64,000 bases of DNA, taken from positions 3,424,001 through 3,488,000 of the forward strand of contig OZ243927.1 in NCBI GenBank assembly GCA_965213925.1, given 5' to 3'. This DNA comes from Trueperaceae bacterium (lineage in GTDB: Bacteria; Deinococcota; Deinococci; Deinococcales; Trueperaceae). The notes beneath the pieces are model-generated. The model was not told the origin of the DNA. It did no database searches and worked only from the letters and a program-made list of their open reading frames with translations. Shown here piece by piece: positions 389-53,699 of this stretch (position 1 is its first letter; each line of letters begins with the position of its first letter). The translations under genes were made by a program, and so were the position numbers.

Positions 389-472
389 CAAAGCTTCTGC
401 CGCGAAAGGCCCGTAGAGTTGCACAAACCTTTCGGCGAAAGGACGTTTGTCGCAAACCCCGGTCAATAAGCC

Positions 473-4891: not shown

Positions 4892-4917
4892 ATTGCCCTT
4901 CACCTTACGCAATATGT

Positions 4918-5403
4918 ATGGCTGACGTCCTCACAGCCTGGCGACTTGTCAGACCTAAATATGGCAACCAGGCTGATGCTTTTAGCGGTGAAGGTTCGCG
5001 TCTCTTCGGTGGGCGTTGGAACTCGCCGGGTGTGCGTGTTACTTACGTCAGCTCGAGTCTGTCGCTCGCCACACTAGAGACGCTCGTCCACGCGGACAGG
5101 CGGCGCTTCGAGCGAGACTACGTCGCCTTCAAGCTCTACCTACCTGAAGCGCTCGTGCTCGAGCTGCGCAGTGAGGATTTGCCCGAGGAGTGGCGGGCGA
5201 GGGCCGTGAGCGAGGGCGCGAGGCAAGTTGGAGATGCGTGGCAAGCGGCGCAGGCGAGTGTCGCCTTGTCTGTACCTAGCGTAATCGTGCCTGCGGAGCG
5301 GAACTATCTGCTCAACCCTAGACACCCGCAGTTCAGCGAGCTAACGATTGAAGACCCGCAACCTTTTCGCTTCGACGCACGGCTCGCTGACAAAGGACGA
5401 TAA
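4918..5403 (+). CDS. RES-domain toxin (NAD+-targeting family)
   Basis: AFSGEGSRLFGGRWNSPG, SLATLE, VPSVIVPAERNYLLNPRHP motifs. Confidence 0.9.
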   Translation: MADVLTAWRLVRPKYGNQADAFSGEGSRLFGGRWNSPGVRVTYVSSSLSLATLETLVHADRRRFERDYVAFKLYLPEALVLELRSEDLPEEWRARAVSEGARQVGDAWQAAQASVALSVPSVIVPAERNYLLNPRHPQFSELTIEDPQPFRFDARLADKGR

Positions 5404-5512
5404 AGTCATACTCGCGGCTTTTCATGATCGAGAAGGTACCGCAGTCGCAATGCGTGTGGTCGGGTAGCAGGAGACCGTCACTGGCCTCCCGCCCCTAAGA
5501 GCCGTGCGTGCG

Positions 5513-7948: not shown

Positions 7949-7983
7949 ACTTTCACCGCACACGGCTCAAGCCAATCACGAAG

Positions 7984-8118
7984 CTACCGCGATAAGCTCG
8001 TAGTAGCCCTGAAGATTCGCCCTCTCAGATTGCGAACCCGCCAATTGACAGCTCGCCAGTTCACAGCGTGCCAGTCCGTAGGTCCTTCGGTTTCGTTTGC
8101 AGAGCTTCGGGCTCGCAT
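7984..8118 (-). pseudogene. 44-aa remnant of the outer intron's RT ORF (N-terminal RVT_N-like segment)
   Basis: MRARSSANETEGPTDWHAVNWRAVNWRVRNLRGRIFRATTSLSR*; the W..(I/V).W....V..L..RI..A pattern of chloroplast-like IEP N-termini, located just before domain V. Confidence 0.75.
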
Positions 8119-9060
8119 CTAACTTCCCCTTAGTTGGCAACCTTCAGAACATCTCTCTAGGAGATTGACCAGTCCCACGTCAGCACCCTTTCGGGTTGAG
8201 TATCGGCTCTATCTAGCCCCTTATGATTTCGGGTCGCCTTTCGGCGGCTAGCCTTCGCTTCTTGGGACCTCCTATGCCCGCTGGAGCGTTCGGCGTTCCT
8301 TACGGTTCGCTTACCTGCAACAGGACTCCAACGGGGTTTCCGTGTTCCACTTGTGTGAGCTGCGACCGGGTTAGGCGTGCTCTCTACTCCGGGGTCATGG
8401 TGTCCTCGTGCAGAACGCGCGTACTCTCTGCACCTGTTGAGGCGAGATACCTTATCCTTAGCCTCGACCCGACCATGCCTTATCAACCATCCTTCGACAA
8501 ACCGAACTAACGGAGCTTTGACCGAGCATTCACGTTCGTTCGCCTTACCGGTCTTTCCCTCACCCGAGTCTCTACGATGGTTTAGATTCTCTTAGGCTTT
8601 ACCTCCAGCTTCACACCTTGCCATTACTGGCAACGCATGTGGAAGTCGGGAATGAGCCTGGACACTGGCTCAGAGTTCTTTTCCTCCTTCCTAACTCACT
8701 CACTTCAAGCGACTTCACGTCGCACACGCGCGCGTTAGTCGCACAATGGTTCGTGTGTTGAAAAAGGGTTAAGGGGAAGGTCGAATAACGATGTAATACG
8801 GCTTTCGGGTAACTCCCCTAGGGATTACCTCGAGCGTAGCGAGTAGAAAGAACTACGGATTTCAATGAGTGCGTTCGGACTTCGGTGAAACCCACTGCTC
8901 GTCACTTTGTGGTGTCATGTTGATAGAGCACATAAGAAGCTCAGCTGAGCGCTAGTTCGGCTACAAAGATACTTGTGGTTGTACTTAGCCACATGACGGT
9001 ATACTCTGGGCATCCAAGGTTTGAAGACAAGCCTAGTTCTTGCCGAGCGGAGGGAGTCCA

Positions 9061-11970: not shown

Positions 11971-13493
11971 GCCTGCAAAGCAGCCGCGGGCTTCCCAAAA
12001 AGCGCCGAGGAGGACATCGTCTGAAGGATATCGCTAATATCGCCTTCGGTGGTGGCGGCGCAAAAGGCGTTGCCCACGTAGGGGCGCTCGCTGGACTGGA
12101 GAAAGCGGGTGTGCTTATTTACGGAGACTATAGCTACCGTGAGGGTCACCTTCTCAAACGCCTTAGTAGACTCGTACCGGGGACAATCGGACTCTCGGGC
12201 ACAAGCATCGGTTCGCTCATTGCCGCGCTCACTGCATCGGGTTACACCTCAGCAGAGTTGAAGGCTAAGCTGCTCGACAGCAACGCAATGCTTAAAGCTG
12301 TAGTGAACTTCCAAAGTGCTGCTAGCGCGGGTATACCTACATTGGATCAGAACTTCGCCTACGATCACAAGCCTGCTAAGCGGGAGGGCGCGATATGGGG
12401 TGTTAAAAAATCAGCGCCTCTGACTGTCGATACCCGTAGGCAATACATACGGAAAGGAGGCTGGGTCTTTTTTGGCACACGAGGCAAAGTGGTAGCTAGG
12501 AACGTTGGCTTCTTCGCCCTTAGGTATGCCGTGGAGTCGGAAATACATGATGTGTTAGCTGAACTCTTCCGTGAGAGCTCGCGGCGCGCGCCAAGGGGCG
12601 GTGCGAACGGACTATCTACCTTAGATAAGAACAGGTTGCAAAAACTTGCAGGTGACGCTATACCTGAAACAGTTTATAGATACCTCGGTTTCTTTAAGGG
12701 GCAATCTTTAGTACAACTCGTGAGTCAGCTCATCTATTCAAAGCTGAGGCCTGGTGAGCGTGAGCTGATTCATGAGGACAACCGTATGTATTTCGGAGTA
12801 AAACGGATTGAGGACTTATCAGAAGCCCAGCGAATGAGGGTGTCGTTCGCCCGCCATAAAGAGTGCTTTGGCATCAACCTGAGACTCACCGGGGCCAACC
12901 TCGAGACACAAATGAGCCACGTGTTTAGCGCCCGCACTACTCCTACGATGGCAGTAGCGGACGCCGTACGCATCTCGGCGAGCTTCCCACTCCTATTTAG
13001 ACCGACTCTTATCTCCTTTGAGAAAGCCGAAAAGATGTCTGAGGCAGAGTCTTGGGCGCTGAGCCCCGAAGAGCTTACGGGCATATGGATCGACGGCGGC
13101 ATATACAATAACGTACCTTGGGACGTGTTCGACACCGGCTTAACTCTTGGCTTAGCGCTGGGTGCAACGCCTGAGGAGAAGCGTAGTCCCGCCTGGCAAA
13201 CTGTCCATGACCCGTTCTCTTACCCACCTTTTGAAGAGGATGAAGAGGACCGCCTCAACGCACTACTAGAAACCTATGCGCACAGCAAACTCCTGGACGA
13301 TACGTCGCGGCTCAACAATAGTTACGGTAACGTTAAGTATAGTCGGATTCGCTTAGACGCAACTCCCATTGATACACTCGATATAGCGGGGTATCACAAC
13401 CTCCCACTCCGAGAGCGAACGGCTTTGCTGAATCGCAACCAGACTATTGTTTCGTCACACCTAAAAAAATTTACCTCTGTCGCCCAGCGGTAA
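11967..13493 (+). CDS. Patatin-like phospholipase
   Basis: GGGGAKG glycine loop, GTSIG nucleophile, WIDGG; GTGA overlap with the upstream gene. Confidence 0.88.
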   Translation: MSLQSSRGLPKKRRGGHRLKDIANIAFGGGGAKGVAHVGALAGLEKAGVLIYGDYSYREGHLLKRLSRLVPGTIGLSGTSIGSLIAALTASGYTSAELKAKLLDSNAMLKAVVNFQSAASAGIPTLDQNFAYDHKPAKREGAIWGVKKSAPLTVDTRRQYIRKGGWVFFGTRGKVVARNVGFFALRYAVESEIHDVLAELFRESSRRAPRGGANGLSTLDKNRLQKLAGDAIPETVYRYLGFFKGQSLVQLVSQLIYSKLRPGERELIHEDNRMYFGVKRIEDLSEAQRMRVSFARHKECFGINLRLTGANLETQMSHVFSARTTPTMAVADAVRISASFPLLFRPTLISFEKAEKMSEAESWALSPEELTGIWIDGGIYNNVPWDVFDTGLTLGLALGATPEEKRSPAWQTVHDPFSYPPFEEDEEDRLNALLETYAHSKLLDDTSRLNNSYGNVKYSRIRLDATPIDTLDIAGYHNLPLRERTALLNRNQTIVSSHLKKFTSVAQR

Positions 13494-13614
13494 AGTGCAG
13501 GTCATAGTTCCTAGCAGGTCCATATATCGACGGGAGCGACCTCGGCTACCAATTCTGTAGCTAGATATCGTCGATGTATGGGTAGTTTACGGGTCTTTCG
13601 CACCTTGAGCGTTA

Positions 13615-13640
13615 GGTCGGAGTTGCGCGCGTCCAACGCA
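13615..13640. repeat. GCGCGC-core dyad site 4
   Basis: ggtc-ggag-tt-GCGCGC-gt-ccaa-cgca; accessory dyad from 13580. Confidence 0.75.
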
Positions 13641-14635: not shown

Positions 14636-14980
14636 TAGTGGCTCATCCGCCAAATCCCGCACTTTCCGCATGATTAAATTTCATCTCTGACGCTAGGCGG
14701 TAAACGAGAACTTGACAACAAATCTCATAAATGCACTAAGGAGGGCTCTATAGGCTATATCACGTAGTCCGTTTGGTAGAACAAGTGCGCTGAGGCGCAC
14801 TCTGATACCTACACGCTATTCTAGCTCTACCTAAACTGCCGCCGCGCGCTTTACAGTTGGACTCAGGTGAAGTATAAGAGGTGTCAGGTGCACCCGAAGT
14901 TCCCTGCAGAGAGCTTGTTTCTAACCCAGCAGCCCGTTACACTCTCCATAACTCTATGTTGCATCAGAAAGGCGGCGCGC

Positions 14981-16095: not shown

Positions 16096-16539
16096 TTGAC
16101 GTTGAAATTTGTGGATGTACCTGCTAACAAGTCCGACAAGGTTCGCTTGACGCTTCCCGACATCTCGAGGCGGCTCAAAGCCGCGCTGTTGCAACTATCT
16201 GAATGTGACCTCGTGGTAGGCGTCGCGACAGGCGGTACGGTCTTGGCGAGCTTGGCGGCGTATGAACTCGCGCTACCGCTCAAACTCATCCGTATCAACT
16301 ACCGCGCCGAGGACAATACGCCGCAACGCGTGGAGCCGACGCTACTCCAACCTTTTGAGCTAAGGGGACAGCCGCGCGTATTGCTTGTAGACGACGTGAG
16401 CGTGACCGGCGCAACGTTTCGGGTAGCGACTGCTTTGCTCGGGGTTCGTGAGGTTACAACGTTAGCCCTCAAAGGTCGGGCGGACAGCGTGCTCTACCCC
16501 GAGGTGACGCGCTGTGTGTTGCTACCGTGGCGCGACTAG
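16096..16539 (+). CDS. Type I phosphoribosyltransferase-family protein
   Basis: VVGVATGG and the PRPP loop VLLVDDVSVTGAT. Confidence 0.8.
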   Translation: MTLKFVDVPANKSDKVRLTLPDISRRLKAALLQLSECDLVVGVATGGTVLASLAAYELALPLKLIRINYRAEDNTPQRVEPTLLQPFELRGQPRVLLVDDVSVTGATFRVATALLGVREVTTLALKGRADSVLYPEVTRCVLLPWRD

Positions 16540-16598
16540 AAATAGATATTAGGACTATCTTTAGGTGACCCTACAGGCCTTTCACATTGTAAGCGCTG

Positions 16599-16624
16599 TG
16601 CGTGTGATGCGCGCGTTCGTCGCA
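16599..16624. repeat. GCGCGC-core dyad site 6
   Basis: tgcg-tgtg-at-GCGCGC-gt-tcgt-cgca; accessory dyad from 16564. Confidence 0.85.
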
Positions 16625-23160: not shown

Positions 23161-23186
23161 CGCGACGAACGCGCGCGTCTCCAGCA
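23161..23186. repeat. GCGCGC-core dyad site 8
   Basis: cgcg-acga-ac-GCGCGC-gt-ctcc-agca; accessory dyad ending at 23221. Confidence 0.8.
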
Positions 23187-23286
23187 ATACCCTTACGCCC
23201 GTTCGGGCTCGTCATCATGCATAAAGACGACCTCTTTTTCGCCTAAGCCCAAGGTTTGAGAACCAGTAAGTCTCTATGATTCGAGC

Positions 23287-24303
23287 TCAGCTATCTGACC
23301 ATGGCTTGAGAACAATCTTCCCGGTCGTCTCCCGTTGCTCGAGCATCCTGTGCGCCTCCGCGGCTTGGCTCAGAGGGAGCACCTGATCCACTTGGACCTT
23401 GACTTGCCCCGAGGCGACGTAGCCGATGAGATCTCCCATAGCTTTCGCGGCAGCCTCCGGTCGCAGGGCGAACCACAGACCGAGGTTGAAAACATGAATA
23501 GACTGGCTGGGCGAGGGATCATAAAAGAAGTCGATGACAGTTTGCTCACCAAAGCGTAAAGGCTGACCGCTCGCCATGCCGTACACGACGCAGCGCCCGA
23601 ATGGCGCGAGGCAACTAAGTCCTCGCGCGAAGGTCTCACCGCCCGTCATCTCTAAGATGATGTCGGCACCTTTGCCCTCGGTGAGGTGGCGTACTCGCTC
23701 AGGCCAGTCGGACTGCGTGTAATCGACTGTGGCGTCCGCCCCTAGCTCGAGCACCTTCTGCCTCTTCGCTTCCGTGCTGACCGCGCCTATGACCTGACCC
23801 GCACCGAGTCGCTTAGCGAGCTGTACGGCGTAACTCCCTACGCCGCCCGCAGCACCTTGGATAAGCACTGTTTCGCCAGTCTTCAACCCCGCGATCTCCC
23901 TCAACAGCAGGAGGGCGGTGGTACCCGCTACTGGCAAGGCTGCCGCCTGGTCGGCGCTCACCCCAGGGGGGATTGGAACGGCGCGGTCGGCGGGCGCGAG
24001 CGCGTACTGCGCGTAACCGTTCGAGCCGCTCCCGACGAGTGCAAAGACCGGCGTGCCTACAGAGGGAGCCACGACCCCTTCGCCGAGTGCTTCGACAACA
24101 CCCGCTACCTCGCTCCCCGGAATAAACGGGAGGGGGGTCGGGAACGGATAGATGGCGTTGCTGCGCCGGGCTACATCCGAGTAGTTCACCGAAGCCGACT
24201 CGACCCGGATTAGCACTTCCCCTGCGCCGGGGCTTAAATCGTCAACCGTTTCATACCTGAGAACGTCCGGACTGCCATACTCGTAGATTCGGGCGACTTT
24301 CAT
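23287..24303 (-). CDS. NADPH:quinone oxidoreductase (MDR family)
   Basis: PFIPGSEVAG, LIQGAAGGVGS, AEAHRMLEQRETTGKIVL. Confidence 0.9.
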   Translation of the reverse strand: MKVARIYEYGSPDVLRYETVDDLSPGAGEVLIRVESASVNYSDVARRSNAIYPFPTPLPFIPGSEVAGVVEALGEGVVAPSVGTPVFALVGSGSNGYAQYALAPADRAVPIPPGVSADQAAALPVAGTTALLLLREIAGLKTGETVLIQGAAGGVGSYAVQLAKRLGAGQVIGAVSTEAKRQKVLELGADATVDYTQSDWPERVRHLTEGKGADIILEMTGGETFARGLSCLAPFGRCVVYGMASGQPLRFGEQTVIDFFYDPSPSQSIHVFNLGLWFALRPEAAAKAMGDLIGYVASGQVKVQVDQVLPLSQAAEAHRMLEQRETTGKIVLKPWSDS

Positions 24304-28970: not shown

Positions 28971-30158
28971 TCAGAAACTGTCTTTCGCTCGGCGCAACTC
29001 CCTATCGAGGAAGGGCGACTCTAGTGGTTCGAACAGTATCGCTCCTTGTACACTCGTCGTACTCTGAGCGCGAAGCGATTGAGACGACATCCCGCTCACA
29101 CCATTACACTCCGGTTCGGCTCGACTGCCTACCGTATGAACCCACTGCTCAACCCCGTTATAGGTGAACTTCTGGTCGATGAAGCTAGGTGAGAAGCGTG
29201 CGATAAAGACCAAACCGCCGCTGCTGCTCTCTCTAAAGGTCTGCTCATAAAGCGTCTCAAAGCGCATAAGCAGCTCGCCGTACTCTCCAGCCGCGATGTT
29301 GCGGAGGTTCTGCGGCGTATCCGGGCGACCTGCCACGCTTGTAGTGAGAATGTCGAGCGACATCGGCTGGCAAAGAGGCACATCGGGCGCAGTGTCGGTG
29401 CGATTCCAGGTATAGGTAGGCCAGCGGTTGTCGATGTTCTCAAAGGTATCGTAGAGGTTCGCGTAGAAGCCCGTCCCGGTATCTTCATCGCGGTACTCCA
29501 TCACGAAGCCGAGCCGCTGATCAGGACCTTCAACCTCGTTGCAGTTGCGAATCGTCTTCGTCGTCACCTTGAACGGCTCGTTGCTGAGCTTTTCTTTTTC
29601 GAAGATGCGGACGAAAGCGTCGTTGATCGTCATTGCCGAGTTCTCCTCGGTAAGCGGAATGTTCGGCGCTGCACCGTCGAAGAGTCCTCTGAAGTCAAGG
29701 GTAAATGTTCCTTCGAAGCGGGGGCAGTCCTCGAGGGGACCGTTGTAAGTTTTTACGATCTCCGGCTTGAAGTCGATATAGGGTGCCCAGAGCGTATCAC
29801 TGCCGAGTTCGACCTCAAAGGTCTTCTCGAGTTCTAGGACAAGGTAGCCGTCTTCATCAATCGCTTGAATGTAAGCGATATGCTCGCCGACCGGCAGGGT
29901 GTAAACGTGGCGTTGGTAGTCAGGTTCATGTATACGGAAGTAAGGCGCAGGGTCGCCATTGATGAAGGACTGAACTTCGGCTACGTTGGATAAATCGTAG
30001 AGGTCGCGCACCCAGATTTCGATGTCGCCCGAGTTGAGGAGGTTGGGCAGCATCTCGGTGGTGTAGAAGACGTCGCTCCAGATGCCGCGCTGCTCGGCGG
30101 TGTAGGACAAGACTTCCAAGTCGGTCAAGAAGGGCTTACCGTCTTGATTCTTAGACAT
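28971..30158 (-). CDS. Uncharacterised acidic protein, probably 5'-truncated
   Basis: Long ORF without a visible RBS; abuts the S8 fragment head-to-head. Confidence 0.5.
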   Translation of the reverse strand: MSKNQDGKPFLTDLEVLSYTAEQRGIWSDVFYTTEMLPNLLNSGDIEIWVRDLYDLSNVAEVQSFINGDPAPYFRIHEPDYQRHVYTLPVGEHIAYIQAIDEDGYLVLELEKTFEVELGSDTLWAPYIDFKPEIVKTYNGPLEDCPRFEGTFTLDFRGLFDGAAPNIPLTEENSAMTINDAFVRIFEKEKLSNEPFKVTTKTIRNCNEVEGPDQRLGFVMEYRDEDTGTGFYANLYDTFENIDNRWPTYTWNRTDTAPDVPLCQPMSLDILTTSVAGRPDTPQNLRNIAAGEYGELLMRFETLYEQTFRESSSGGLVFIARFSPSFIDQKFTYNGVEQWVHTVGSRAEPECNGVSGMSSQSLRAQSTTSVQGAILFEPLESPFLDRELRRAKDSF

Positions 30159-30169
30159 ATCCGAGGTGG

Positions 30170-31940
30170 GTGTGATCCGAACTATGTACTTAAAGCGTTT
30201 GCCGTACCTAATGATCCTCGCTACAACGACCAGTGGCACTACCCCGCTATCAACCTACCCAAAGCGTGGGATGTGACTGTAGGAAGCGAGGATGTCGTGG
30301 TTGCTGTTGTTGACTCCGGCATCTTGTTCGACTTGGATGATCCCTCAAGGAGCCACCCCGACTTAGCAGGCAAGGTCGTGCCTGGCTTCGACTTCGTCTC
30401 GAGCCTCCAACTCAGTAACGACGGCGATGGACGTGACGGCAATCCCTATGACCCTGGTGATGTCGTGGGAGGGCAAGGCAGCTACCACGGCTCACATGTC
30501 GCAGGAACTGTAGCAACGACGACGAACAATGGTTTGGGTATAGCAGGCGTCGCTTGGAACGCTAAAGTGTTGCCCATTCGGGTTCTAGGTGTTGGCGGTG
30601 AGGGCACACTTGCAGATATCTTGGATGGTATGCGCTGGGCAGCGGGACTCGAGGTCTCAGGTGTACCTTCAAACCCCAATCCAGCAACTGTGCTCAACCT
30701 GAGCTTAGGTGGACGGGGTTCATGTCCAGGTGCATTGCAAGACGTACTGGATCAAGTGGCAGCAAGGGGTGTCAGTGTCGTCGTAGCAGCAGGTAACTCA
30801 GACGAAGACGCAAACAACACCTTGCCTGCGAACTGCCGTGGTGTCATCACGGTCGGGGCAACCGACGCTGTTGACACCCGCGCTCACTATTCGAACTACG
30901 GCTCGGTTTTAGATGTCATGGCTCCAGGAGGTGATATGCGTGTTGACCTCACTGCTGATAGTCAGCCCGACGGGGTCCTGAGTTTAGGCAAGGACGACCT
31001 AACGAACAGCATGACCTACAGCTACGCTCAAGGCACGTCGATGGCTGCGCCGCACGTAGCTGGGGTGGTGGCGCTGATGAAGGCGCTCGAGCCTGATTTA
31101 ACCCCGACTCAAATTCATAGCGTACTCACCGCGACGGCGCGTCCTTTATCGAGTCTGACCTGCCGCCGTAGCAGCGGAGAGGACTGCGGCGCAGGCTTGA
31201 TCGACGCAGTAGCTGCGTTGACGATGGTGCGAGACGGGGAGGTGCCAACATCGCCTCTGAGTTTCAGCCCTGAGGTGCTGTCGTTTGGAACGGACTTAGA
31301 GGAACTCGAGTTGACCCTCATGAATGAAAGTGACGCGAGCCTCTCCTGGGCATTCCTGCGTTTCGAAGAAGATACAGGTAATCCTCAGGCGGTTCCAGAT
31401 GACGCCCTCTCTATTCCTAGCGACCAACCCTCATCGGGCACGCTCGCTACAGGGGAGCAAACGACTACCCGCGTCGTGCTGGACCGCAGCTTGATAGACG
31501 AAGAAGGAAGTTATGCTCTCGAGCTGCTCTTCTCAGCAAATAGTGAAGAGATTTCGTTGCCCCTACGTTTCACGAAGCAAATTGAAGGAGGCACTACTCT
31601 CAACGGTCCGATGATCGTGGCAGCTTTTCTCGAGGACTCGAGTGGCGACCTCATCTTGAGCGGGGCGCAAGAGAATGACGGCATCATCCGCGACTACGCT
31701 TTCGACGTTTTAGCAGGCGAGAATCTACTCATCGCCTGGTCGGATGAGAACAACGATATCGAGATTGATACAGGCGACTACTTGGGTAGCTATCCTGACT
31801 GGGTCAGTGTTAAGGCGCAAGCTACCTTGACCAACCTGGACATGACCCTATCTGAGGTGGTGGAGACGCAGGATATGAACCTGAGGTCAGCGCTGTTGCA
31901 GGAACTGGAGAGGGTGAGGAGAGACGGAAGCGGGGATTGA
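30170..31940 (+). pseudogene. S8 subtilisin-like serine protease lacking signal peptide and prodomain
   Basis: VAVVDSG, HGSHVAG, AAGN, GTSMAAPHVAG; the reading frame begins at PNY..AVPNDP with no credible start. Confidence 0.75.
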
Positions 31941-32001
31941 AACCCCTAAAATGAAGTGAGCTTTTGTGCGTGTGAACGGGCCGAGGCTCGCCTGAGGCTT
32001 T

Positions 32002-32027
32002 CGCAAGAGATGCGCGCAACTCGCGCA
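32002..32027. repeat. GCGCGC-core dyad site 11
   Basis: cgca-agag-at-GCGCGC-aa-ctcg-cgca; accessory dyad at 31967-31992. Confidence 0.82.
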
Positions 32028-32112
32028 CAACTGCTGTAGCACACCCGTAGCGGGTTCCGCCTCTCCCTTCGAGGGCACGTCTCGATTGTTAGGAGCGAAG
32101 GAAACGCACTTA

Positions 32113-33039
32113 TTAGGGCTGCGCCAGCTCGCGCTCCAGCGCCTTCCGGTCCCAGTTCGCCAGCTCAGCCGCCGCCTCGTAGGTGCTCTGCAAGAAGTCC
32201 AAGAGCGCGGCGTCAGGGTCGGTAGCTTTCCGCACCGCCTCATAGGGCAGGATAAATTCGCCCAGCGCGTTATGGTAGTACGCTTCGGCAGGGCGGACCT
32301 CGTAGCTCCCGAAGCCCTCCGGCTCTGGGTAAGCATAAGAATAGAAGGCGGCGCCACCCAGCTCCTGGCTCAAGAAGAAGCCTGCGCTCGAGACCTCATG
32401 CGAGTAGGCTTCCTGCATCACCCAGTCCGCCACGTTAGGCGCGCCGCCCGGGTGTGTAGGCGCGGGTCGCCCGGAAAAGCGGGTCACGGCCAGGTCGAAC
32501 GCGCCCCAGAAGAGGTGAATCGGGCTCGCCTTGCCGACGAAGTGGGCGCGGAAGCGCGTGAACACCCGGTGAACGTGCAGGAGGATTTGCCACAGTTGTG
32601 TAGCGCCTATAGGGTCGTAGGCCGCCTCCCCTTCATGCTCATGGAAGGGTTGGATGGGATGAGGCAGCTCGACCGGCACGGGCCAGATGTCCACCTCGAG
32701 GTTTAGTTCTTTGAGCAGACGAAGAACACCGTAGTAGAAGTCCGCCACCGACATCGAGCGTAAGGGTAGGGTGCGTACCGCGCCCTCCAACGTGCGCACA
32801 ACAAGCTGGTGGTCGTGGAAGTCGAACTCGAGTTCAAATGTGCGTGTTCCATAGGGAATGAGCGAGGTGCTCATTCCCCGCGCGGTGAGGTAGAGGGGAA
32901 CGTGCCAGGAGTGGTTGGTCCAGGGCGTCCGCTCGAGCCGAATCTTCCCGACAATCTGGCTCCAGAGGTGCAGGGTGTCGTAGGTCTCGCCCCAGCGTTC
33001 GAGCGGCAGGGGCGGCCAGACGTTTTTGGCTTCCATCAA
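32113..33039 (-). CDS. DUF5996-like conserved protein
   Basis: TLHLWSQIVGKIRL..W.NHSWHV, FWGAFDLAVTRFSGR, EAYSHEVSSAGF. Confidence 0.8.
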   Translation of the reverse strand: MMEAKNVWPPLPLERWGETYDTLHLWSQIVGKIRLERTPWTNHSWHVPLYLTARGMSTSLIPYGTRTFELEFDFHDHQLVVRTLEGAVRTLPLRSMSVADFYYGVLRLLKELNLEVDIWPVPVELPHPIQPFHEHEGEAAYDPIGATQLWQILLHVHRVFTRFRAHFVGKASPIHLFWGAFDLAVTRFSGRPAPTHPGGAPNVADWVMQEAYSHEVSSAGFFLSQELGGAAFYSYAYPEPEGFGSYEVRPAEAYYHNALGEFILPYEAVRKATDPDAALLDFLQSTYEAAAELANWDRKALERELAQP

Positions 33040-33270
33040 TCTCTCCTCAAACTTTCCTCTAAGCGTGATGGGGGAGGCTTTTACCTATAACGTTGATGCT
33101 CGAAGCTCGCATCTCGATATTTATCTCCCCCTCGATTCTGTTTATGGCATAGGTTAGCGCGACCCCTATGAGCAAGACTAAACGGTGCGCGCGGAAGGCG
33201 CTTTGTACCGTTCTAGCCAGTGCCGCGCCGCCCGAACATCGCCGTCACCCAGGACATGATCTGCGTCCTC

Positions 33271-34809
33271 CTAGTGCAGTGTGACCTCCGCCCCAGCCTT
33301 TTGCAGTATCGTAGCCAGCCGAAGAGCGTTCTCGGTCGGGATGAGGGGATCACGCCGCCCGGCTCCTAAGAACACCGCAACGCCGCTTAGGTCTGGCAGC
33401 TGATTCTCAAGAGTTCCAGGGTCAAGCGGTATCATCGGCCTGAAGAGCACGACTGCGCGGAAGAGCCCAGGGTGACGCAGCATCGCTGCTGAGGCGATGT
33501 TCGCCCCGTTGGAGTAGCCGACTGCGGCGACGCTGTCCGCACTGAAGTCATAGGCAGACGCCGCCTGCACCACGAAGGTGGCAAGCTCATCGGCGCGGCG
33601 CTTCACGTCGTCCTCGTCGAACACGCCCTCCTCCAGGCGGCGGAAGAAGCGGGTCGAGCCGCGCTCGAGCACCTTCCCGCGGGGGCTCAAGAGGTTGGCG
33701 TCGGGGTGGAGCGTCTGACCCAGCGGAACGAGGTCGTTCTCGTCGCCGCCCGTGCCGTGCAGGAGCAATAGGGTCTCGTCCGCGCCTTCTTTAGGAAGCC
33801 AGCGGTGGATGAAGCCGAGCTGCGGTCCCTCGAAGGTCGCGCGCTTTTCAGCTTGTACCGAAGTCGGTAGGTGGAGGGGTGGTAACACTGCCTCGAGCCG
33901 CCCCCTCATCCCTTCGTACTGCGGCGGCAGCTTGAGCACTCCGCCAAGTTCATCTATGGGTTCGTCCACCGTGAAGCCGGGCGGGTCAGTAGCGACCTCG
34001 AAGAGCGCGCCGCCGGGCTCACGGAAGTAGACCGAGCGGAAGTACTGCCGGTCGACCTGTGGGGTGGGGGCTAGCCCGCCCTTAGCCAGGACCTGCCTCA
34101 ACTCGAGCTGCGCCGCGTCGTCCTCCGAGCGAAACGCGACGTGGTGGACCGTGCCTGCGCCCAGTATACCGGGCCAAAAATCTTCAGCCACACGTATATC
34201 GACCACGCGACCCGGACCTTCCCCCGCAACGTATCGGTGGACGAAGCCCTCCTGAGCGTCCTCGCGGAAGCCTAGGTGCTCAGTGAGAAGGCTCGAGGTC
34301 ACGCCTAGCCGGTCCTCCCAGAGCGTCACGCCGAAGATGCCGCGGACAGCGTGCTCGGCGGGAAGAGGCGACTCTCGCCAAGGCGCGGTCGCGCTTGCGT
34401 CCTCGTCAGCGACGAGCTCGAGCCTCAGCCCGTCCGGGTCGTCAAAAGCCAGCACGCGTTTACCGAAGCGCTCCTCGGTATCAAAGCGCAGATTGCGCGC
34501 TGAGAGCCGATCTAGCCAGAACCCCAGGGACGCCTGTGGAATTGAAAGGGCCACAGACGCGAACTGCCCGGTGCCGCGCTGCCCGCACTGCGCCCCGGGC
34601 CAGGGGAAGAAGGTCAGGATCGTGCCGGGCTGACCCGACGTATCTCCGTAGTAGAGGTGATAAGTAGTGGGATCGTCAAAGTTGACCGTCCTCTTGACTA
34701 GCCGCAAACCGAGAAAGCCCGCGTAGAAGTCTAGGTTGCGCTGCGGGTCGCTCGCAACGGCTGTAACGTGGTGGATACCGCTCGTCATAACGCTCTCCTT
34801 CAGGATCAT
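33271..34809 (-). CDS. VOC ring-cleaving dioxygenase fused to a carboxylesterase domain, with a premature stop
   Basis: GIHHVTA, VKRTVNFDDP.TYHLYY, HHVAF, LLHGTGG, GYSNGA; the frame continues past TAG as EDADHVLG to 33178. Confidence 0.85.
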   Translation of the reverse strand: MILKESVMTSGIHHVTAVASDPQRNLDFYAGFLGLRLVKRTVNFDDPTTYHLYYGDTSGQPGTILTFFPWPGAQCGQRGTGQFASVALSIPQASLGFWLDRLSARNLRFDTEERFGKRVLAFDDPDGLRLELVADEDASATAPWRESPLPAEHAVRGIFGVTLWEDRLGVTSSLLTEHLGFREDAQEGFVHRYVAGEGPGRVVDIRVAEDFWPGILGAGTVHHVAFRSEDDAAQLELRQVLAKGGLAPTPQVDRQYFRSVYFREPGGALFEVATDPPGFTVDEPIDELGGVLKLPPQYEGMRGRLEAVLPPLHLPTSVQAEKRATFEGPQLGFIHRWLPKEGADETLLLLHGTGGDENDLVPLGQTLHPDANLLSPRGKVLERGSTRFFRRLEEGVFDEDDVKRRADELATFVVQAASAYDFSADSVAAVGYSNGANIASAAMLRHPGLFRAVVLFRPMIPLDPGTLENQLPDLSGVAVFLGAGRRDPLIPTENALRLATILQKAGAEVTLH

Positions 34810-34893
34810 CGAACGATCCTTTGCATGGCTCGAGTGTAGACGGCGTCGAGGCGATCTCTCAAGACACCCAATTCGCCTCTTCTTGACCGATAT

Positions 34894-35718
34894 TTAGATC
34901 GCCCGGTGTTGTTTGCGGTACTGTAGGGGGGTCATCCCGTGGCGGCCCCGGAATTTGCGGTTGAAGTAGGCGGGGTCAGGGTAGCCGACCCGCTCGCCGA
35001 TAGAGGCGACGTACGTGTCCTCCCGTAAGAGCAACCGGCGCGCCTCAGCCATACGCCGCTCAGCGATCCAGTCATTCACGGTGCGGCCGGTCGCTTCGCG
35101 TACAGCCGTCGTGAGGTAGGCAGGCGTGAGGTGAAGCGTGCTAGCTACGTCCGCGAGGGATAGCGGCTCTCGAAATTTGACTTCGATTACGTCGAAGACG
35201 CGAGCCAGGAGGGGCTGCACCGCGAGCGGCGCGGTGCCGTAGCGCTCGGCGCTGAGCCGAGCGGCGTCGACGAGCAGGAGGCTCAGAAGTGCTCGGCTCG
35301 CCTCCTCAGAGCCAAGGTCTGTTCCTTTTGTCTCGGCTTCGAGCCTGGTCAGGCTCGTTTCCCACTGCGGGCGGTCATTGGGTGGCACACGGAGCGGCTC
35401 GGGCTGCGGCTGTATGAAGGCGAGGAAGAGTGGGTTGCAGAGCCAGTAGAAGAGGACGTGGCTGCGCTCACTGATGGGAACGAGGGGTTCGGGGACGAAG
35501 GTGACGATGTCGTAAGCAGCCTGAGCGAACCTTCTCGGCTCGAGCCGCTCGTTCGGTGCGGCGAGGTAGAGGTCGCCTTCGCTTACAGCCCCGGACGTGG
35601 CAACCTCTCGGATATAGATGAGGCTTGCCAGACCGTTCTGCTGCACTATCCCATCTGAGGACAACTCCCCTTGTGCATGCGTAGCAAGAATTTGGACTAG
35701 CTCAGTTGAAATAGACAC
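34894..35718 (-). CDS. AraC-family regulator
   Basis: LSLADVA..LHLTPAYL, VGYPDPAYFNRKFR..HGMTP. Confidence 0.85.
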   Translation of the reverse strand: MSISTELVQILATHAQGELSSDGIVQQNGLASLIYIREVATSGAVSEGDLYLAAPNERLEPRRFAQAAYDIVTFVPEPLVPISERSHVLFYWLCNPLFLAFIQPQPEPLRVPPNDRPQWETSLTRLEAETKGTDLGSEEASRALLSLLLVDAARLSAERYGTAPLAVQPLLARVFDVIEVKFREPLSLADVASTLHLTPAYLTTAVREATGRTVNDWIAERRMAEARRLLLREDTYVASIGERVGYPDPAYFNRKFRGRHGMTPLQYRKQHRAI

Positions 35719-35822
35719 CTCGGGTATTGTAGCGCCTGTCTAAGCATAAGGTGTCAGTGTCACCTTATCCCGCTCATAAGCTAGTCAGGTAAGTCCCCAA
35801 AGGCCGTAAGCGCGCGGGCTTT

Positions 35823-35848
35823 TGCGAGAGATGCGCGCGTCTGTTGCA
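35823..35848. repeat. GCGCGC-core dyad site 12
   Basis: tgcg-agag-at-GCGCGC-gt-ctgt-tgca(gaag). Confidence 0.85.
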
Positions 35849-37633: not shown

Positions 37634-38350
37634 GTGCTTATGAAGAGGATTATCCTGATCGCCGCCGGACTCGCCCTCATCACTGTGGCTGCTGCCGCTA
37701 TCTACTTCTACTTTACAGACCCCGGTAGGTTGACGACATCACCTGAATTCGCCGAATTAGAAAAATCTGTGTCAGCCGGTACCCTTACCTCGCGAGCCGA
37801 CCCCGCCATGAACATGATGTTTGACGAAGACTACGAGTACATCGGCGGTCAAACGTTCGAACTCTACGGCACCGCTGATGTTGAACAGCATTTCTTCGTC
37901 GAGGAGCATCCGGACGGAAGTTTGAAAAGCCTTTTCTGGCTGCAGTTTGAAGGCTTTTTGCCTAGCAACGACTACGCCTATGATTACACTGACTCTCCGC
38001 TTCGAGTCGAAATAGACGGCCTCAACTTCTATACGGACACAGCAGCAGGCATTGACGTTAGGTTCTGGCGGCTTGGCTCACCAGGAACGGACGGCTACCT
38101 CGTGCGCAAGTTCCTTGCTGGCAAAGGCTACAGCTACCCTGACGAGTATTTCTACGCGCGGCTCGTTCATATCCCGGACTCGGCCCGCCGCAAAGAGCTC
38201 CTCATCATTTTTATCGACGACCTAAAGCCCTCGGGCTTCGCTGCGGCGGAGCTGCGCGAGGGCGGAGAACGTGAGGAAAGCTGGCTGGAGGTCGAGGCGG
38301 CGCACCTGGAAAAGATCAGGAACGTCATGACGCTGAGTCAGCTTGAGTGA
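37634..38350 (+). CDS. Hypothetical exported or membrane-anchored protein (single-gene module)
   Basis: N-terminal hydrophobic segment, 238 aa. Confidence 0.7.
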   Translation: MLMKRIILIAAGLALITVAAAAIYFYFTDPGRLTTSPEFAELEKSVSAGTLTSRADPAMNMMFDEDYEYIGGQTFELYGTADVEQHFFVEEHPDGSLKSLFWLQFEGFLPSNDYAYDYTDSPLRVEIDGLNFYTDTAAGIDVRFWRLGSPGTDGYLVRKFLAGKGYSYPDEYFYARLVHIPDSARRKELLIIFIDDLKPSGFAAAELREGGEREESWLEVEAAHLEKIRNVMTLSQLE

Positions 38351-38420
38351 GGCACCGCCTGGAATCGGTATTCAGCTAAGTACCGGGGCAGAGTTCGGGC
38401 GGAGATTTGCATAGACTTCG

Positions 38421-38446
38421 TGCGTGTGATGCGCGCGTCTCTCGCA
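38421..38446. repeat. GCGCGC-core dyad site 14
   Basis: tgcg-tgtg-at-GCGCGC-gt-ctct-cgca(gaag); accessory dyad at 38386-38411. Confidence 0.88.
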
Positions 38447-39847: not shown

Positions 39848-39989
39848 GAATGGATCATCCGCTAAGTTCTGCATCATTCGCTCAGCCAGCTTCCCTCGTC
39901 TTCAACGCATAGCAGCGACAGAGGATTTTGCGACGAATTTCCTGGACAAACCAAGAAACTCTTTGCAACCCTCCGCCATGCGCTCTGAC

Positions 39990-49753: not shown

Positions 49754-50300
49754 TACGCTGGTTGGCACAAAACGTGGCGCTAGGCGATTTTCTTTGCTCC
49801 AAACAGCCTTGGTTGCTCAAAATGACTTAGAGAAAATAAGCTCGGAAGGGGCAAGGCGGCGCGCATCTCGGTAAACGACCGTTTTTGCAATCTGTTCAGC
49901 GTCTGGCTGTGACTGGTTAAACCACCTACGCTCATTGCAACCGAGTTTCACTGTCAGATTTATCGTCTAATTCTATCCACAGGGCAGGTCGAATACCGCC
50001 ACTATCTTTAGGTCTGCCATAGACACCATCGCCACGAACATAAATACGTCCGTATCTATTTACACTGGCAGCAGTGCGACCATAATAGCCTGGTGAGCGA
50101 AGTCGCCACCAATAGAATTTACTTTATCTTCTTTAGTGACCCCGACGGCAACAGTTAGGCAGTGCAGCAAATCTCGAGCCGCAGTTGAACGAGGTAATTT
50201 TTATACGTGTGAACAGGCCGAGGCGTGCGTAAGTCTTCTGCGTGTGGTCGGGTAGCAGGAGACCGTCACTGGCCTCCCGCCCCTAAGAGCCGTGCGTGCG

Positions 50301-52736
50301 GTAGGGTAGGATGCCAGCGAGCTGCCTATCAAAGATAGCGCTTTTCCAACATCCCCCCTCCGAACCCCGCATGACCGCTTTCCGTGTCACGGGGCTCTCC
50401 AGTAATCTCAACATGAAAGTCCTTTCCCGTGGTAGTGCCCTTTATGGATGTCTTGGTGGCAGGTGAGGCAGACCACCAGCGTCTTGCGTCGGCGAGCCGA
50501 CATCCTTTGCATCCATTCGGGCCGTGACTTACGCCCTCTTTGTTCAAGGTCTGCCAGTTTTCGGACGTGATGCACTTCGACGTGCTCCACCGACCCACAA
50601 AGCTCACAGCTTTGCGCTAAAAGGCGGTCCACCACTTCATTACGCCCGTTCCAAATCTTACTGTTCTGGTTGTCGTCCAAGGCTACCCATTTGTTCCACC
50701 GTAACGGGATGCCGCCAAAGTGGGTGATGAGTGGCTTCTTTTTAGGACCACGGTCCACTTTGACTTGAAGGACTTTATAGCTGCCCTCCTTGAGGTCGAT
50801 GGTGGTGCGGTAGCGCCGATAGATTTTCTGGCAACTCGTCCTGAACTTATTCGCCAGCGTTTTCACTAGCGAGAGTTCTGTGACGCGCTTGAGTCGGCCC
50901 AGCGTGTGGAGGTTGTAGGCCATGCGGTAATACTGCACGACCCCGCGGTATTCCGCTTGATATTGGCTGACGATGCTGTAAGCATCGCTGCTGAGCCTTT
51001 GTGGGAGGTGAATGGGCTTGCCGCGTCGCATGTACTTGGCGCAGTGCGCTTTCATGACGTGCGACGGTACCCGGAGTCCGACGCTGCCGTTGATGCAGCG
51101 TTGTCCCCGGTGGTCGTGTTTATCGTCAGCGTGAAGAATGTGGACCTCATAGCCCAGGAAACGCGCTTTCTGCGTGCGCGCGTGGGTCAGCAGGGTCTTA
51201 TCCTCGCTAAGCTCAAGCTTGAGTTCGTCGCGTAAGAAGGCGGCAATCTCTTGCTTGATAGCCACGGCCTCGTCTTTTGGCCCTTTCAGCCCCAGCAGAA
51301 AGTCATCGGCATACCTTTGGTACCACAATCGCCGGAAGTTCGGGTCATCGGGGTCGCGCGACGGCATTGTCTGGGCCTGCTGGCTCAGTTGCCGCGCGGT
51401 CTCCCAGTTCCCTGCTTTCCGAGCGTCGTGAGCGGCTTTGGCGATGGCGACATACGGGGGGTAGGTCTTGCGGCGTTCGCCGCGTGTGTAAGCTGGTATC
51501 AGTTCGTGCTCGACAAACTTGTCCAGCCTGTCCAGAACCAGGTTGGTGAGGATTGGACCGACAATCGACCCTTGCGGCACACCGCTGTAGGTCTGGTGAA
51601 AGGTCCAGTTCTCCAGGTAGCCAGCTTCGAGCAGCCCCTTGATAAGCCGCAGGAAGCGGTTGTCGTGGAAGCTCTTCTGCAAGATGTTCAACAAGACATC
51701 GAAGTTAATCTTGTCGAAACACGAGCAGATATCTCCCTCGATAAACCACTTTGTACCTCGACCCTCTTGGGTGACTTTGCGCAAAGCTGTGTGGCATCCC
51801 CGTTTCGGTCGAAAGCCGTGAGAACGGTCGCTGAACCGCGGTTCATAATAGGCTTCCAGGATGGAGCGGATAACTTCTTGAAGAAGTTTGTCCGACCAGG
51901 AAGGCATCCCTAGAGGCCGCATCTTGCCATTCTTTTTGGGAATGTAACGGCGTCGTACCGGCGTCCACCGATACCGCTCTTGGCGTAGCGCCTCGATGAT
52001 GGTATCAATTTTCGCTAGGGACATCCCGTCCACGGTTTCGTCCGAGGCACCTGGTGTCAGTGCGCCTTCGTTCTTGTAGAGCTTGGCGTAGGCGCGCAGG
52101 TAGAGGTCAGGCCGGTAGAGTAGGCGATACACCCTTTTAACCGGCAGGCCACGCTGGCCGCGTTCACGTAGGATGGTGAGTACCGTTTCGGCGGTTCGCA
52201 TCTCGCGTACCTCACAGTTCCTTTCCATCATGATTACCTGGTCTCCTTCGCCCTGCGAACGGCTCTCCCGCTCTCCCTGGTGGGGCGTGACGCCCACGAC
52301 TACTACGAGACCTCCGTTACCTTAGGACTCGCGTCCCTTAGGCAATCCCGTGTTTCGTCACTGAGGAACGTGCTAGAACGACTTAGGCTCGCCACTCATA
52401 GCCTTGGATGAACTCATTGTTCATCGCCCATCAAGCAGAGCGTCATTTGGACGAAACTTGAATCCAAATGTCCTGATGGCGTCGGTGTACAGACGTGCTA
52501 CCGACGGGTGTGCGTGACCACCGCTGGCTATTGGCGTTCAAACAATCCAGTCTTAGCCTTATCATTCAGGCGTTGCAGAGCCGCATCGTACACGTCTTCC
52601 TTTGCGCTCCGCTTTAATGCCATGCTCTTGTCCCCTCCCTCCTTTCGAGCTCAGGTTAGGCATCCGCCTCGGGGTCGTTTGCCCTGAACCCCGGCCAACT
52701 CCGTTGGCAATTCACTCAATGCGCACCACGGCGCAC
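50301..52736 (-). mobile_element. Inner group II intron, copy 2
   Basis: Same boundaries within domain V of the outer intron. Confidence 0.9.
50408..52201 (-). CDS. ltrA: Group II intron RT/maturase/HNH, copy 2
   Basis: Protein identical to 5620-7413. Confidence 0.95.
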   Translation of the reverse strand: MRTAETVLTILRERGQRGLPVKRVYRLLYRPDLYLRAYAKLYKNEGALTPGASDETVDGMSLAKIDTIIEALRQERYRWTPVRRRYIPKKNGKMRPLGMPSWSDKLLQEVIRSILEAYYEPRFSDRSHGFRPKRGCHTALRKVTQEGRGTKWFIEGDICSCFDKINFDVLLNILQKSFHDNRFLRLIKGLLEAGYLENWTFHQTYSGVPQGSIVGPILTNLVLDRLDKFVEHELIPAYTRGERRKTYPPYVAIAKAAHDARKAGNWETARQLSQQAQTMPSRDPDDPNFRRLWYQRYADDFLLGLKGPKDEAVAIKQEIAAFLRDELKLELSEDKTLLTHARTQKARFLGYEVHILHADDKHDHRGQRCINGSVGLRVPSHVMKAHCAKYMRRGKPIHLPQRLSSDAYSIVSQYQAEYRGVVQYYRMAYNLHTLGRLKRVTELSLVKTLANKFRTSCQKIYRRYRTTIDLKEGSYKVLQVKVDRGPKKKPLITHFGGIPLRWNKWVALDDNQNSKIWNGRNEVVDRLLAQSCELCGSVEHVEVHHVRKLADLEQRGRKSRPEWMQRMSARRRKTLVVCLTCHQDIHKGHYHGKGLSC

Positions 52737-52771
52737 ACTTTCACCGCACACGGCTCAAGCCAATCACGAAG

Positions 52772-52906
52772 CTACCGCGATAAGCTCGTAGTAGCCCTGA
52801 AGATTCGCCCTCTCAGATTGCGAACCCGCCAATTGACAGCTCGCCAGTTCACAGCGTGCCAGTCCGTAGGTCCTTCGGTTTCGTTTGCAGAGCTTCGGGC
52901 TCGCAT
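52772..52906 (-). pseudogene. 44-aa remnant of the outer intron's RT ORF, copy 2
   Basis: Same as 7984-8118. Confidence 0.75.
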
Positions 52907-53699
52907 CTAACTTCCCCTTAGTTGGCAACCTTCAGAACATCTCTCTAGGAGATTGACCAGTCCCACGTCAGCACCCTTTCGGGTTGAGTATCGGCTCTAT
53001 CTAGCCCCTTATGATTTCGGGTCGCCTTTCGGCGGCTAGCCTTCGCTTCTTGGGACCTCCTATGCCCGCTGGAGCGTTCGGCGTTCCTTACGGTTCGCTT
53101 ACCTGCAACAGGACTCCAACGGGGTTTCCGTGTTCCACTTGTGTGAGCTGCGACCGGGTTAGGCGTGCTCTCTACTCCGGGGTCATGGTGTCCTCGTGCA
53201 GAACGCGCGTACTCTCTGCACCTGTTGAGGCGAGATACCTTATCCTTAGCCTCGACCCGACCATGCCTTATCAACCATCCTTCGACAAACCGAACTAACG
53301 GAGCTTTGACCGAGCATTCACGTTCGTTCGCCTTACCGGTCTTTCCCTCACCCGAGTCTCTACGATGGTTTAGATTCTCTTAGGCTTTACCTCCAGCTTC
53401 ACACCTTGCCATTACTGGCAACGCATGTGGAAGTCGGGAATGAGCCTGGACACTGGCTCAGAGTTCTTTTCCTCCTTCCTAACTCACTCACTTCAAGCGA
53501 CTTCACGTCGCACACGCGCGCGTTAGTCGCAGCAGGATAGAGATTCTAAATGTCCGGAGAGCAACCCCTTTCCAAAAGAAAAGCCGTAGAAAATATCGAA
53601 CAAAGCTGAGCTTCAACGCGCCTTAGAAATCGGAAAACTATGAAAAATTTCCTCAAAGTCAAAGTGCTTCTTTTTACCCTTCACCACCAACAACTTCAA

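Follow-up and report, generated by a model that had tools for sequence, protein, structure and literature searches.

A polar second dyad beside the module junctions of a Trueperaceae genome as a candidate subsite of a composite Xer-like recombination site

INTRODUCTION

The 64-kb stretch of Trueperaceae DNA analyzed here (64,000 nucleotides, contig C1:3424001-3488000 of genome G000), referred to below as the window, contains 16 copies of a near-palindromic sequence with the consensus TGCR-N6-GCGCGC-N6-YGCA. These main dyads, each composed of two 10-bp arms around the palindromic spacer GCGCGC (10+6+10), separate single genes or small gene groups with unrelated functions, among them regulators, hydrolases, a toxin–antitoxin pair, and a subtilase. 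A palindromic spacer has no direction, and therefore the cell cannot tell excision from inversion. A first-pass annotation of the window had noticed, next to some of the main dyads, a second, degenerate dyad at a period of 35 bp, and had compared the pair to a resolvase res site, in which a crossover subsite is combined with an accessory one. The question raised by this locus is what the second dyad is, and whether it could give a direction to junctions that are otherwise symmetric.

RESULTS

Main dyads as borders of gene modules

A half-site matrix located 76 main sites in the 4.75-Mb genome G000, concentrated at 0.8–0.9, 2.6–2.7, and 3.2–3.5 Mb. When both arms were good, the spacer was GCGCGC in 61 of 69 cases in this genome and in 73 of 82 in its relatives, while the N6 parts of both arms were often non-complementary. 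Sequence blocks common to G000 and five related genomes start or stop at main-dyad centers; as at dif and pdif sites, the module borders have the form of arm, 6 bp, and arm, with the exchange placed at the central region. Most homologous flank pairs without a second dyad stayed homologous to or beyond the main center, and the ends of homology in such pairs peaked at position +16, just past the GCG-CGC midpoint (11 pairs). The modules occur in both orientations in the chromosomal arrays. In this Trueperaceae genus, the main dyads would be the junctions for the cutting and rejoining of gene modules, and the enzyme that acts on them is most likely a dedicated Xer-like tyrosine recombinase.

One of the modules (window positions 4457-5403, flanked by a degraded dyad, at ~4384, and by the dyad at 5451) is formed by a pair of Xre-type antitoxin and RES-domain toxin genes, and a 79% identical copy of it is present in another array of G056.

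A second dyad at a fixed offset and in one orientation

In the window, a CGGGCC-like center (at most one mismatch) was found exactly 25 bp before the main arm in seven of the 32 flanks of the 16 main dyads, which corresponds to a period of 35 bp, while ~0.1 would be expected there by chance. As the background for this word with the same tolerance is only 0.54 per 152 flanks per offset, the probability of finding at least seven in 32 flanks is 2e-11, and the presence of a second degenerate dyad beside main dyads was in this way confirmed. The element spans 26 bp from position -35, and a linker of 9 bp separates it from the main arm (Table 1). Its seven centers in the window are CGGGCC and CAGGCC, each found twice, CGGGTC, CGAGCC, and CGGGCG. 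The first-pass annotation had listed eight instances; seven of them were placed correctly, but the eighth, read in reverse from 14670, has the center GCGGGA and belongs to another flank family, GGATGnnCCAyTn.

Table 1. Second dyads, the associated linker and main dyad, and group II introns in the window
Feature	Position	Strand	Remarks
Second dyad TGCG-TGTGAA-CGGGCC-GAGGCT-CGCC	31967..31992	+	26 nt behind stop of subtilase gene 30144-31940
Linker tgaggcttt, 9 bp	31993..32001	+	class consensus TAAGCnyTS; overlaps outer flank motif common to all main sites
Main dyad CGCA-AGAGAT-GCGCGC-AACTCG-CGCA	32002..32027	.	crossover site of module system
Second dyad TGCA-ACTCTA-CGGGCC-TTTCGC-GGCA	398..423	-	toward main dyad 363-388; behind stop of ORF 473-1270(-); top matrix score, 28.1 bits
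Second dyad GGGT-AGTTTA-CGGGTC-TTTCGC-ACCT	13580..13605	+	before main dyad 13615-13640; behind patatin gene 11967-13493
Second dyad GGTG-ACCCTA-CAGGCC-TTTCAC-ATTG	16564..16589	+	before main dyad 16599-16624; behind phosphoribosyltransferase gene 16096-16539
Second dyad TGCA-TGATGA-CGAGCC-CGAACG-GGCG	23196..23221	-	toward main dyad 23161-23186; behind alcohol dehydrogenase gene 23287-24303(-)
Second dyad GGGC-AGAGTT-CGGGCG-GAGATT-TGCA	38386..38411	+	before main dyad 38421-38446
Second dyad TACG-TGTGAA-CAGGCC-GAGGCG-TGCG	50204..50229	+	before intron-split main dyad (50239-50246 and 53514-53531)
Group II intron, 3267 nt, with 629-aa RT/maturase/HNH ORF	50247..53513	-	2 nt past GCGCGC center of main dyad
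Identical group II intron copy	5459-8725	-	splits another main dyad; 2 of 16 window dyads are split

The annotation had also staked its reading on an enrichment at this offset in a larger set of sites, and such an enrichment was found. In G000, the center was located at -25 in 10 of 152 flanks, against the background given above, and at -26 in two, with at most three at any other offset. Among the relatives, represented by 99 sites in the fetched arrays of G056, G035, and G003, it was at -25 in 14 of 198 flanks and at -26 in four. Hence, the center is at -25 or -26 in 30 of the 350 flanks of G000 and its relatives, and always in the same orientation. The period is 35 bp in about four fifths of the instances and 36 bp in about one fifth, so that the exact 35-bp period claimed before describes all the window cases but not those elsewhere, and a composite of 61–62 bp exists, in agreement with the proposed unit of about 61 bp. 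When a pattern with a variable gap was run on five whole genomes, it gave 28 matches, 12 with a gap of 19, six with 20, one with 18, two identical ones with 27, and seven scattered. A pattern of the same kind in unrelated GC-rich genomes produced gap lengths spread evenly over 14–24 among at least 114 stretches, which gives a picture of noise only, and a stricter pattern applied to metagenome contigs found four stretches, none resembling the system.

The polarity that the first-pass annotation had ascribed to the sites is seen in the fact that the center always reads CGGGCC toward the main dyad. The reverse complement of this word had no peak of its own, the apparent peak at -24 being due to the same motif read with a shift of one base, and GCGCGC was essentially missing at the second-dyad offset (two of 350 flanks). 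The element is a minority feature, present at seven of the 16 window sites, at ~12 of the 76 sites of G000, and at 18 of the 99 sites of the relatives, that is on ~9% of flanks and, outside the window, at ~17–20% of sites. As most sites do not have a second dyad, it is not needed for recombination at the main dyads.

At ~11224 of G000 contig C6, a perfectly palindromic main dyad, TGCGACAGAC GCGCGC GTCTGTCGCA, has a second dyad on both sides. This contig is 15.9 kb long and may be a plasmid or an unplaced piece.

A good outer arm and a poor inner arm

To score the arms, instances were chosen on the center alone, and the main half-site matrix was applied with the center left out. The outer arms scored -5.3 bits and the inner arms -5.8 bits on average, as compared to -24 to -26 for the controls, which were flanks without the element and genomic CRGGCC words (Mann–Whitney p 1e-10 to 1e-15). 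The outer-arm scores were bimodal, with 12 of 27 being positive (between 3 and 15 bits), while the inner arm was a poor half-site, which reached 5 bits in one of 27 cases. The outer arm is often a good half-site of the form TGCRnnnnAA/AC, and the other copies mostly have GGTn at -35. A guanosine at the second position of this arm is present in 21 of 22 unique instances, and the TGCR expected at -35 by the first-pass annotation was indeed found in six of these 22, against a background of 0.9%. The inner arm has YGCR in nine of 22 unique instances, and it recurs in two forms, GAGGYT-YGCR and TWTCGY-nnCn. The classes of outer and inner arms were found in all four combinations, according to a tally over instance lists that make up a small sample. 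The main arms behind near-identical inner arms and linkers are different, which is not accounted for by exchange at the two centers alone.

The linker is 9 or 10 bp long. The earlier description of a 9-bp linker resembling TRAGNCTTS holds in so far as TAAGC is sharper at flanks with a second dyad than at others; however, since the conservation of positions -8 to -1 extends to all main sites, the linker in part represents the flank outside the main arm. None of the CGGGCC dyads passed the filter for two good arms, for which the spacer was GCGCGC or its one-letter variant in almost all cases; hence, the second dyad is not evidently a complete crossover site of the kind usually found here. In terms of its sequence, the second dyad repeats the geometry of the site in degenerate form: Its outer arm is good, its spacer is asymmetric and constant, and its inner arm is poor.

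The second dyad marks the tail of a module

Six of the seven window elements are located 24–86 nt behind the stop codon of a gene running toward the junction, and the seventh follows after 450 nt. In the de-duplicated flanks of G000 and its relatives, analyzed with a crude longest-ORF rule, 24 of 28 elements faced a gene 3′ end, as compared to 185 of 307 other flanks (one-sided Fisher p=0.005); in this respect the second dyad resembles the polar site at the 3′ end of an integron cassette ORF. These data agree with the earlier suggestion that the second dyad is carried by one end of a module, which is the end behind the stop of the last gene, and they explain why the element lies left of some sites and right of others, as its side follows the orientation of the module. 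The element is registered strictly to the main arm and not to the stop codon. Among the 13 best genome-wide matches of the matrix, 12 were beside a main or degraded main dyad, two of these at an altered distance, and the sole free-standing match among these 13 was at C1:3388220.

The long words CRGGCCGAGGYTYGC and CRGGCCTTTCGY of the element occur two and three times in the genome, respectively, two of each at listed sites. A dispersed small repeat was considered and rejected, because such long words are almost confined to main-dyad flanks. A conserved RNA or single-stranded DNA fold of the second dyad was not detected on either strand, with a mean z of ~0 and no consensus structure, which led us to reject an RNA element, a terminator, or an attC-like fold. 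An integron attC was likewise rejected, given that there is no single-strand fold and no IntI-type integrase in the genome.

Homology of module ends stops at the second center in two module families

An orthologue of the subtilase module, with 72% identity, is present in G056. Within the weakly conserved sequence that follows the stop codon, GAACGGGCCGAGGCT is an unbroken run of 15 identical nucleotides, and TGCR and YGCS are also kept, with the center and inner-arm halves being the best-conserved stretch of this pair. The same element is found in genus g4 (G003, G038), and is thus conserved across two genera.

Two module families show breakpoints at the CGGGCC center. The phosphoribosyltransferase module is 82%–91% identical in G000, G056, and G035 through CTAC-RG-RCC, and from the next base on, the three orthologues carry unrelated inner arms, linkers, and main arms. 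For the subtilase module, a variant contig from one sample with this genome (runs X1 and X2) agrees with the window as far as 31988. This is six bases beyond the center, and these six bases are common to this inner-arm type. The match is followed by 13 other letters, composed of YGCR and a consensus linker, and then by the main arm at 35823, with 3.8 kb omitted. This variant is known from assembled contigs of a possibly mixed sample, and the length of the contig's sides is not shown; the 13-letter word was not found in the assembly or the fetched loci. As the contigs join 31988 to 35823, three modules (window 31989-35822) are missing in the co-occurring variant. The missing modules encode a DUF5996 protein, a glyoxalase–hydrolase fusion, and an AraC regulator.

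Since the homology of orthologous module ends stops at its center, the second dyad behaves as a junction, and the ending of homology at an alternative spacer in two module families is what heterospecific sites would give. The description of the second dyad as accessory to a crossover dyad thus has to be modified in two ways: The element is not merely accessory, and it is not a general requirement. At C1:847702, a CGGGCC dyad is present exactly where paralogous copies of the flank have a GCGCGC dyad. In the 247-aa module with the element at 38386, the whole composite is kept in three copies (the window, G000 C1:896498, and G056), which diverge at the main center, and homology in a G056 duplicate likewise runs through the second dyad to the main center.

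Two further comparisons were uninformative. In G035, the copy of the 8726-13565 module breaks off 15 nt short of the second dyad, and the unrelated DNA that follows has no site; a 69% identical G035 paralogue of ORF 37634-38350 has no site behind it. In a homologous flank pair without the CGGGCC element (G056 C8:44609 and G035 C4:19455), homology is lost ~18–22 nt before the main arm, beside a main-arm-like word, which hints at further nested or decayed sites.

The recombinase associated with the main dyads

Genome G000 has two paralogous tyrosine recombinase genes of the 288-aa type, at C1:883816-884679 and C1:3232342, each ~100 bp from a main dyad, and recombinase genes adjoin main dyads in G000, G035, and G056. 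Orthologues with at least 80% identity are found only in G035, G056, G003, and G054 among 60 sampled genomes of the family, and in none of the other 56; all four of these genomes hold main dyads. An exception to this co-occurrence is G038, in which nine perfect main dyads and one composite are present, yet no orthologue was detected at E<=1e-30. The recombinase scored below every curated Xer cut-off (XerC 207 bits, cut-off 335; XerD 200, cut-off 330; XerA 197, cut-off 220), and can be described as Xer-like without being assigned to XerC, XerD, XerA, XerH, or XerS. Its nearest solved structures are XerA and XerD (E ~1e-33). A genome-wide search for an IntI-type integrase was negative, as TIGR02249 reached 112 bits against a cut-off of 265 bits, and its best matches were split, skipping model positions 180–216. 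A plasmid collection contained no relative of the recombinase with more than 60% identity, the best one having ~41%.

The serine resolvase genes of G000, at C1:2620434 and 4516002 (the latter broken), are not beside the arrays, the intact one being 48 kb from the nearest array. Serine resolvase orthologues were not found at E<=1e-20 in G003, G038, and G054, while G003 and G038 have composite sites. Hence, a serine recombinase neither adjoins the sites nor is distributed together with them. In contrast, the tyrosine recombinase gene lies next to main dyads and its orthologues track the genomes with sites, which argues against the resolvase reading of the first-pass annotation; the enzyme of the module system is most likely an Xer-like tyrosine recombinase rather than a serine resolvase. 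The res-site comparison is therefore an analogy of logic and not of family.

Main dyads are located ~100 bp upstream of recombinase starts at G000 C1:883697 and C1:3233296 and at G035 C4:389580. The enzyme may thus bind to the region of its own promoter, and its gene is itself a module.

DISCUSSION

The explanation that we prefer, and to which we would give about an even chance, is that an Xer-like tyrosine recombinase acts on a composite site, in which the second dyad is a polar subsite, serving as an accessory element and probably also as a second junction with a spacer class of its own. According to this explanation, in about one fifth of the sites the module on one side ends in a second 10+6+10 element behind its last gene. 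Extra recombinase protomers would bind there and would confer a direction on the otherwise symmetric main site, in the manner of DR1-DR2 for TnpI at the Tn4430 IRS. The CGGGCC spacer would in addition define a second compatibility class, in which the ends that carry it could be exchanged, and the 35 bp between both centers would then act as a swappable adaptor. The element most likely functions as part of the recombination site; the accessory role and the second-junction role both appear compatible with the data and are not mutually exclusive. The breakpoints favor the second-junction role. The accessory role is favored by the poor inner arm, by the strict coupling of the element to a main dyad, and by the fact that near-identical inner arms are followed by different main arms. 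A bolder form of this explanation, which we regard as possible rather than probable, would have two orthogonal kinds of junction served by one Xer-like recombinase: GCGCGC, joining any site in either orientation, and CGGGCC, joining its own kind in one direction and at gene tails only. In such a two-channel cassette system the 35-bp adaptor would be the smallest module.

An alternative is that the element is purely accessory or architectural, binding extra recombinase or a host factor and steering synapsis or the order of strand exchange, with CGGGCC never being exchanged and the adaptors diverging in another way, e.g., by short-patch homologous recombination between conserved words. This fits the fixed offset and orientation, the near absence of free-standing copies, the lack of a canonical half-site in the inner arm and of any CGGGCC dyad with two good arms, as well as the near-identical inner arms and linkers before different main arms, as expected for a constrained binding sequence; there is also the precedent of DR1-DR2 for TnpI (PMC2847244). 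Still, the phosphoribosyltransferase orthologues lose homology exactly at the center, the variant contig has the same pattern, the outer-arm and inner-arm classes assort freely, and most sites do without the element, which makes a purely accessory role unlikely, though worth keeping in mind. It is more doubtful that the element is an inert relic, i.e., a former tandem main site with a mutated spacer that is passively carried with module ends and has no present function. The 10+6+10 geometry is the same, some arms are identical to main-arm classes (ACGAAC and GTTCGC at 847702; GTTCGCTGCA at 3388220), and the inner arm and the outer TGCR are degenerate in many copies, as decay would leave them. 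However, the same spacer word in the same orientation stands behind unrelated genes in two genera, on which independent decay would not converge, the center and the inner-arm halves are the best-conserved part of the 72% identical orthologue pair, and there are no tandem GCGCGC-GCGCGC pairs at this spacing that could be the source. A dead relic is thus improbable, given the single spacer word, the single orientation, and the conservation across genera.

The location between stop codon and junction, together with two sharply defined inner-arm types that are unlike recombinase half-sites, could also suggest an operator or roadblock for another DNA-binding protein, which would insulate neighboring genes from read-through at module 3′ ends and be unrelated to recombination. 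This we consider similarly improbable, as no fold was detected, terminator-like or otherwise, and as the element copies the recombination site in its outer arm and geometry. It is also in register with the main arm and not with the stop codon, which in the six clear window cases lies at distances ranging from 24 to 86 nt. The reading that was already disfavored above, a res-type site with a crossover subsite and accessory subsites bound by dimers of a serine resolvase, could draw on the one intact and one broken resolvase gene of the genome, and on the palindromic center of the main dyad, which would suit a 2-bp serine crossover. It is hardly credible in view of the distance of the intact gene from the arrays, the failure to find orthologues in G003, G038, and G054, the tyrosine recombinase genes abutting main dyads in G000, G035, and G056, and the presence of only two subsites of equal geometry.

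The preferred explanation, a polar subsite of a composite Xer-like site, has partial parallels in several known systems. In integrons, a polar site is located at the 3′ end of each cassette gene, and attI has extra integrase-binding repeats (DR1/DR2) beside the crossover site. The attC site folds as a single strand with paired R″/R′ and L″/L′ boxes, and group II introns home into it. The system described here is similar in having a polar element at the gene 3′ end and group II introns that home into the sites, while it differs in having near-symmetric double-strand dyads and modules in both orientations, with no IntI-type integrase and no single-strand fold. Heterospecific variants of lox and FRT have the same arms and a different spacer, which makes them an orthogonal site class, and in FRT a third 13-bp repeat serves as an extra recombinase-binding repeat beside the core; these variants are engineered, and the third repeat is dispensable. 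Here, in contrast, the variant spacer is natural and is paired with a standard site 35 bp away, and the inner arm is non-canonical. The res sites of Tn3 and gamma-delta consist of a crossover subsite with a palindromic center and accessory subsites at a fixed spacing that supply direction, with three subsites in all and a varied half-site spacing. This is different from the two subsites of equal half-site spacing found here, where the element is not at every site and a different class of enzyme is indicated.

The closest parallel to the composite site is the IRS of Tn4430. Like the main dyads, its core consists of two inverted recombinase motifs around a short spacer, and further motif copies are present on one side only (PMC2847244), as are the second dyads, at a fixed spacing and in a fixed orientation. 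According to that paper, both deletion and inversion result from symmetric cores alone, whereas the accessory motifs on one side restrict the outcome to a single one and set the order in which strands are exchanged (PMC2847244). Those accessory motifs, DR1 and DR2, are, as far as described there, two direct single motifs present at every IRS, in a transposon, whereas here a single degenerate dyad is found at a minority of sites (PMC2847244). Compared with this description, the second dyad is also distinct in its own constant asymmetric spacer, its location in chromosomal gene-module arrays, and its coincidence with homology breakpoints. The dif modules of Acinetobacter plasmids, recombined by XerC/XerD at pdif (xrs) sites, are similar in that accessory-gene modules are bounded by Xer-type sites of arm, 6 bp, and arm, and compatibility is set by the central region (PMC11705084). 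According to that paper, the sites recombine only if their central regions are closely related, and for FtsK-independent sites it states that no accessory sequences were found nearby (PMC11705084). The polarity of pdif comes from its unlike XerC and XerD arms, and no neighboring second dyad is described for it (PMC11705084). The system described here further differs from pdif in its separate Xer-like enzyme, palindromic spacer, and chromosomal arrays.

Composite tyrosine-recombinase sites with accessory motifs, as well as spacer-defined compatibility classes, are already known. A full-text literature search did not link Truepera to cassette arrays, and it returned no chromosomal Xer-type module arrays outside Acinetobacter. 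What is new is that a site with a symmetric spacer is naturally combined with a degenerate copy whose spacer is asymmetric, at a constant distance of 35–36 bp and at gene tails only, in a chromosomal module system that was not found described in this search. Among the features found at the junctions, only the second dyad is consistently oriented, and its presence marks a module's tail. A role in steering the recombinase, or as a junction class of its own, would explain how order is kept in an integron-like gene shuffling that uses plain double-strand Xer-type sites. In that case, a single enzyme would also have a compact and natural pair of orthogonal sites.

A second polar flank family abuts main arms in ~16 flanks of G000 and its relatives, with the sequence ...TGCRnnnRAyTTnnnGGAyGnnCCAyTn. 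In the window it is found at 14636-14680 and 39848-39880, both read on the minus strand. The family has an extra half-site-like TGCR 26–28 bp before the main arm, and it is the source of the strongest offset-specific signal genome-wide, which is GATG at -12 in 12 of 152 flanks. Some of its copies extend to ~70 conserved bases, and one is located on the far side of the dyad next to a recombinase gene (C1:3233296).

The group II intron that splits two main dyads in the window (Table 1; Rfam RF00029, RF02012) has further copies at C1:290593-293225 and C1:2670202-2672103 of G000, and near 2494795 of C2 in G038. In every copy with a readable flank, it is inserted 2 nt past GCGCGC; the 5′ flanks read ...ACGCGCGCGT in three copies, and the 3′ flanks complete the dyad arm in four. 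The Rfam match of domains V/VI stops 54 nt short of the end of the repeat. This homing is parallel to that of the attC-targeting introns of integrons, with the difference that the intron found here has an endonuclease domain.
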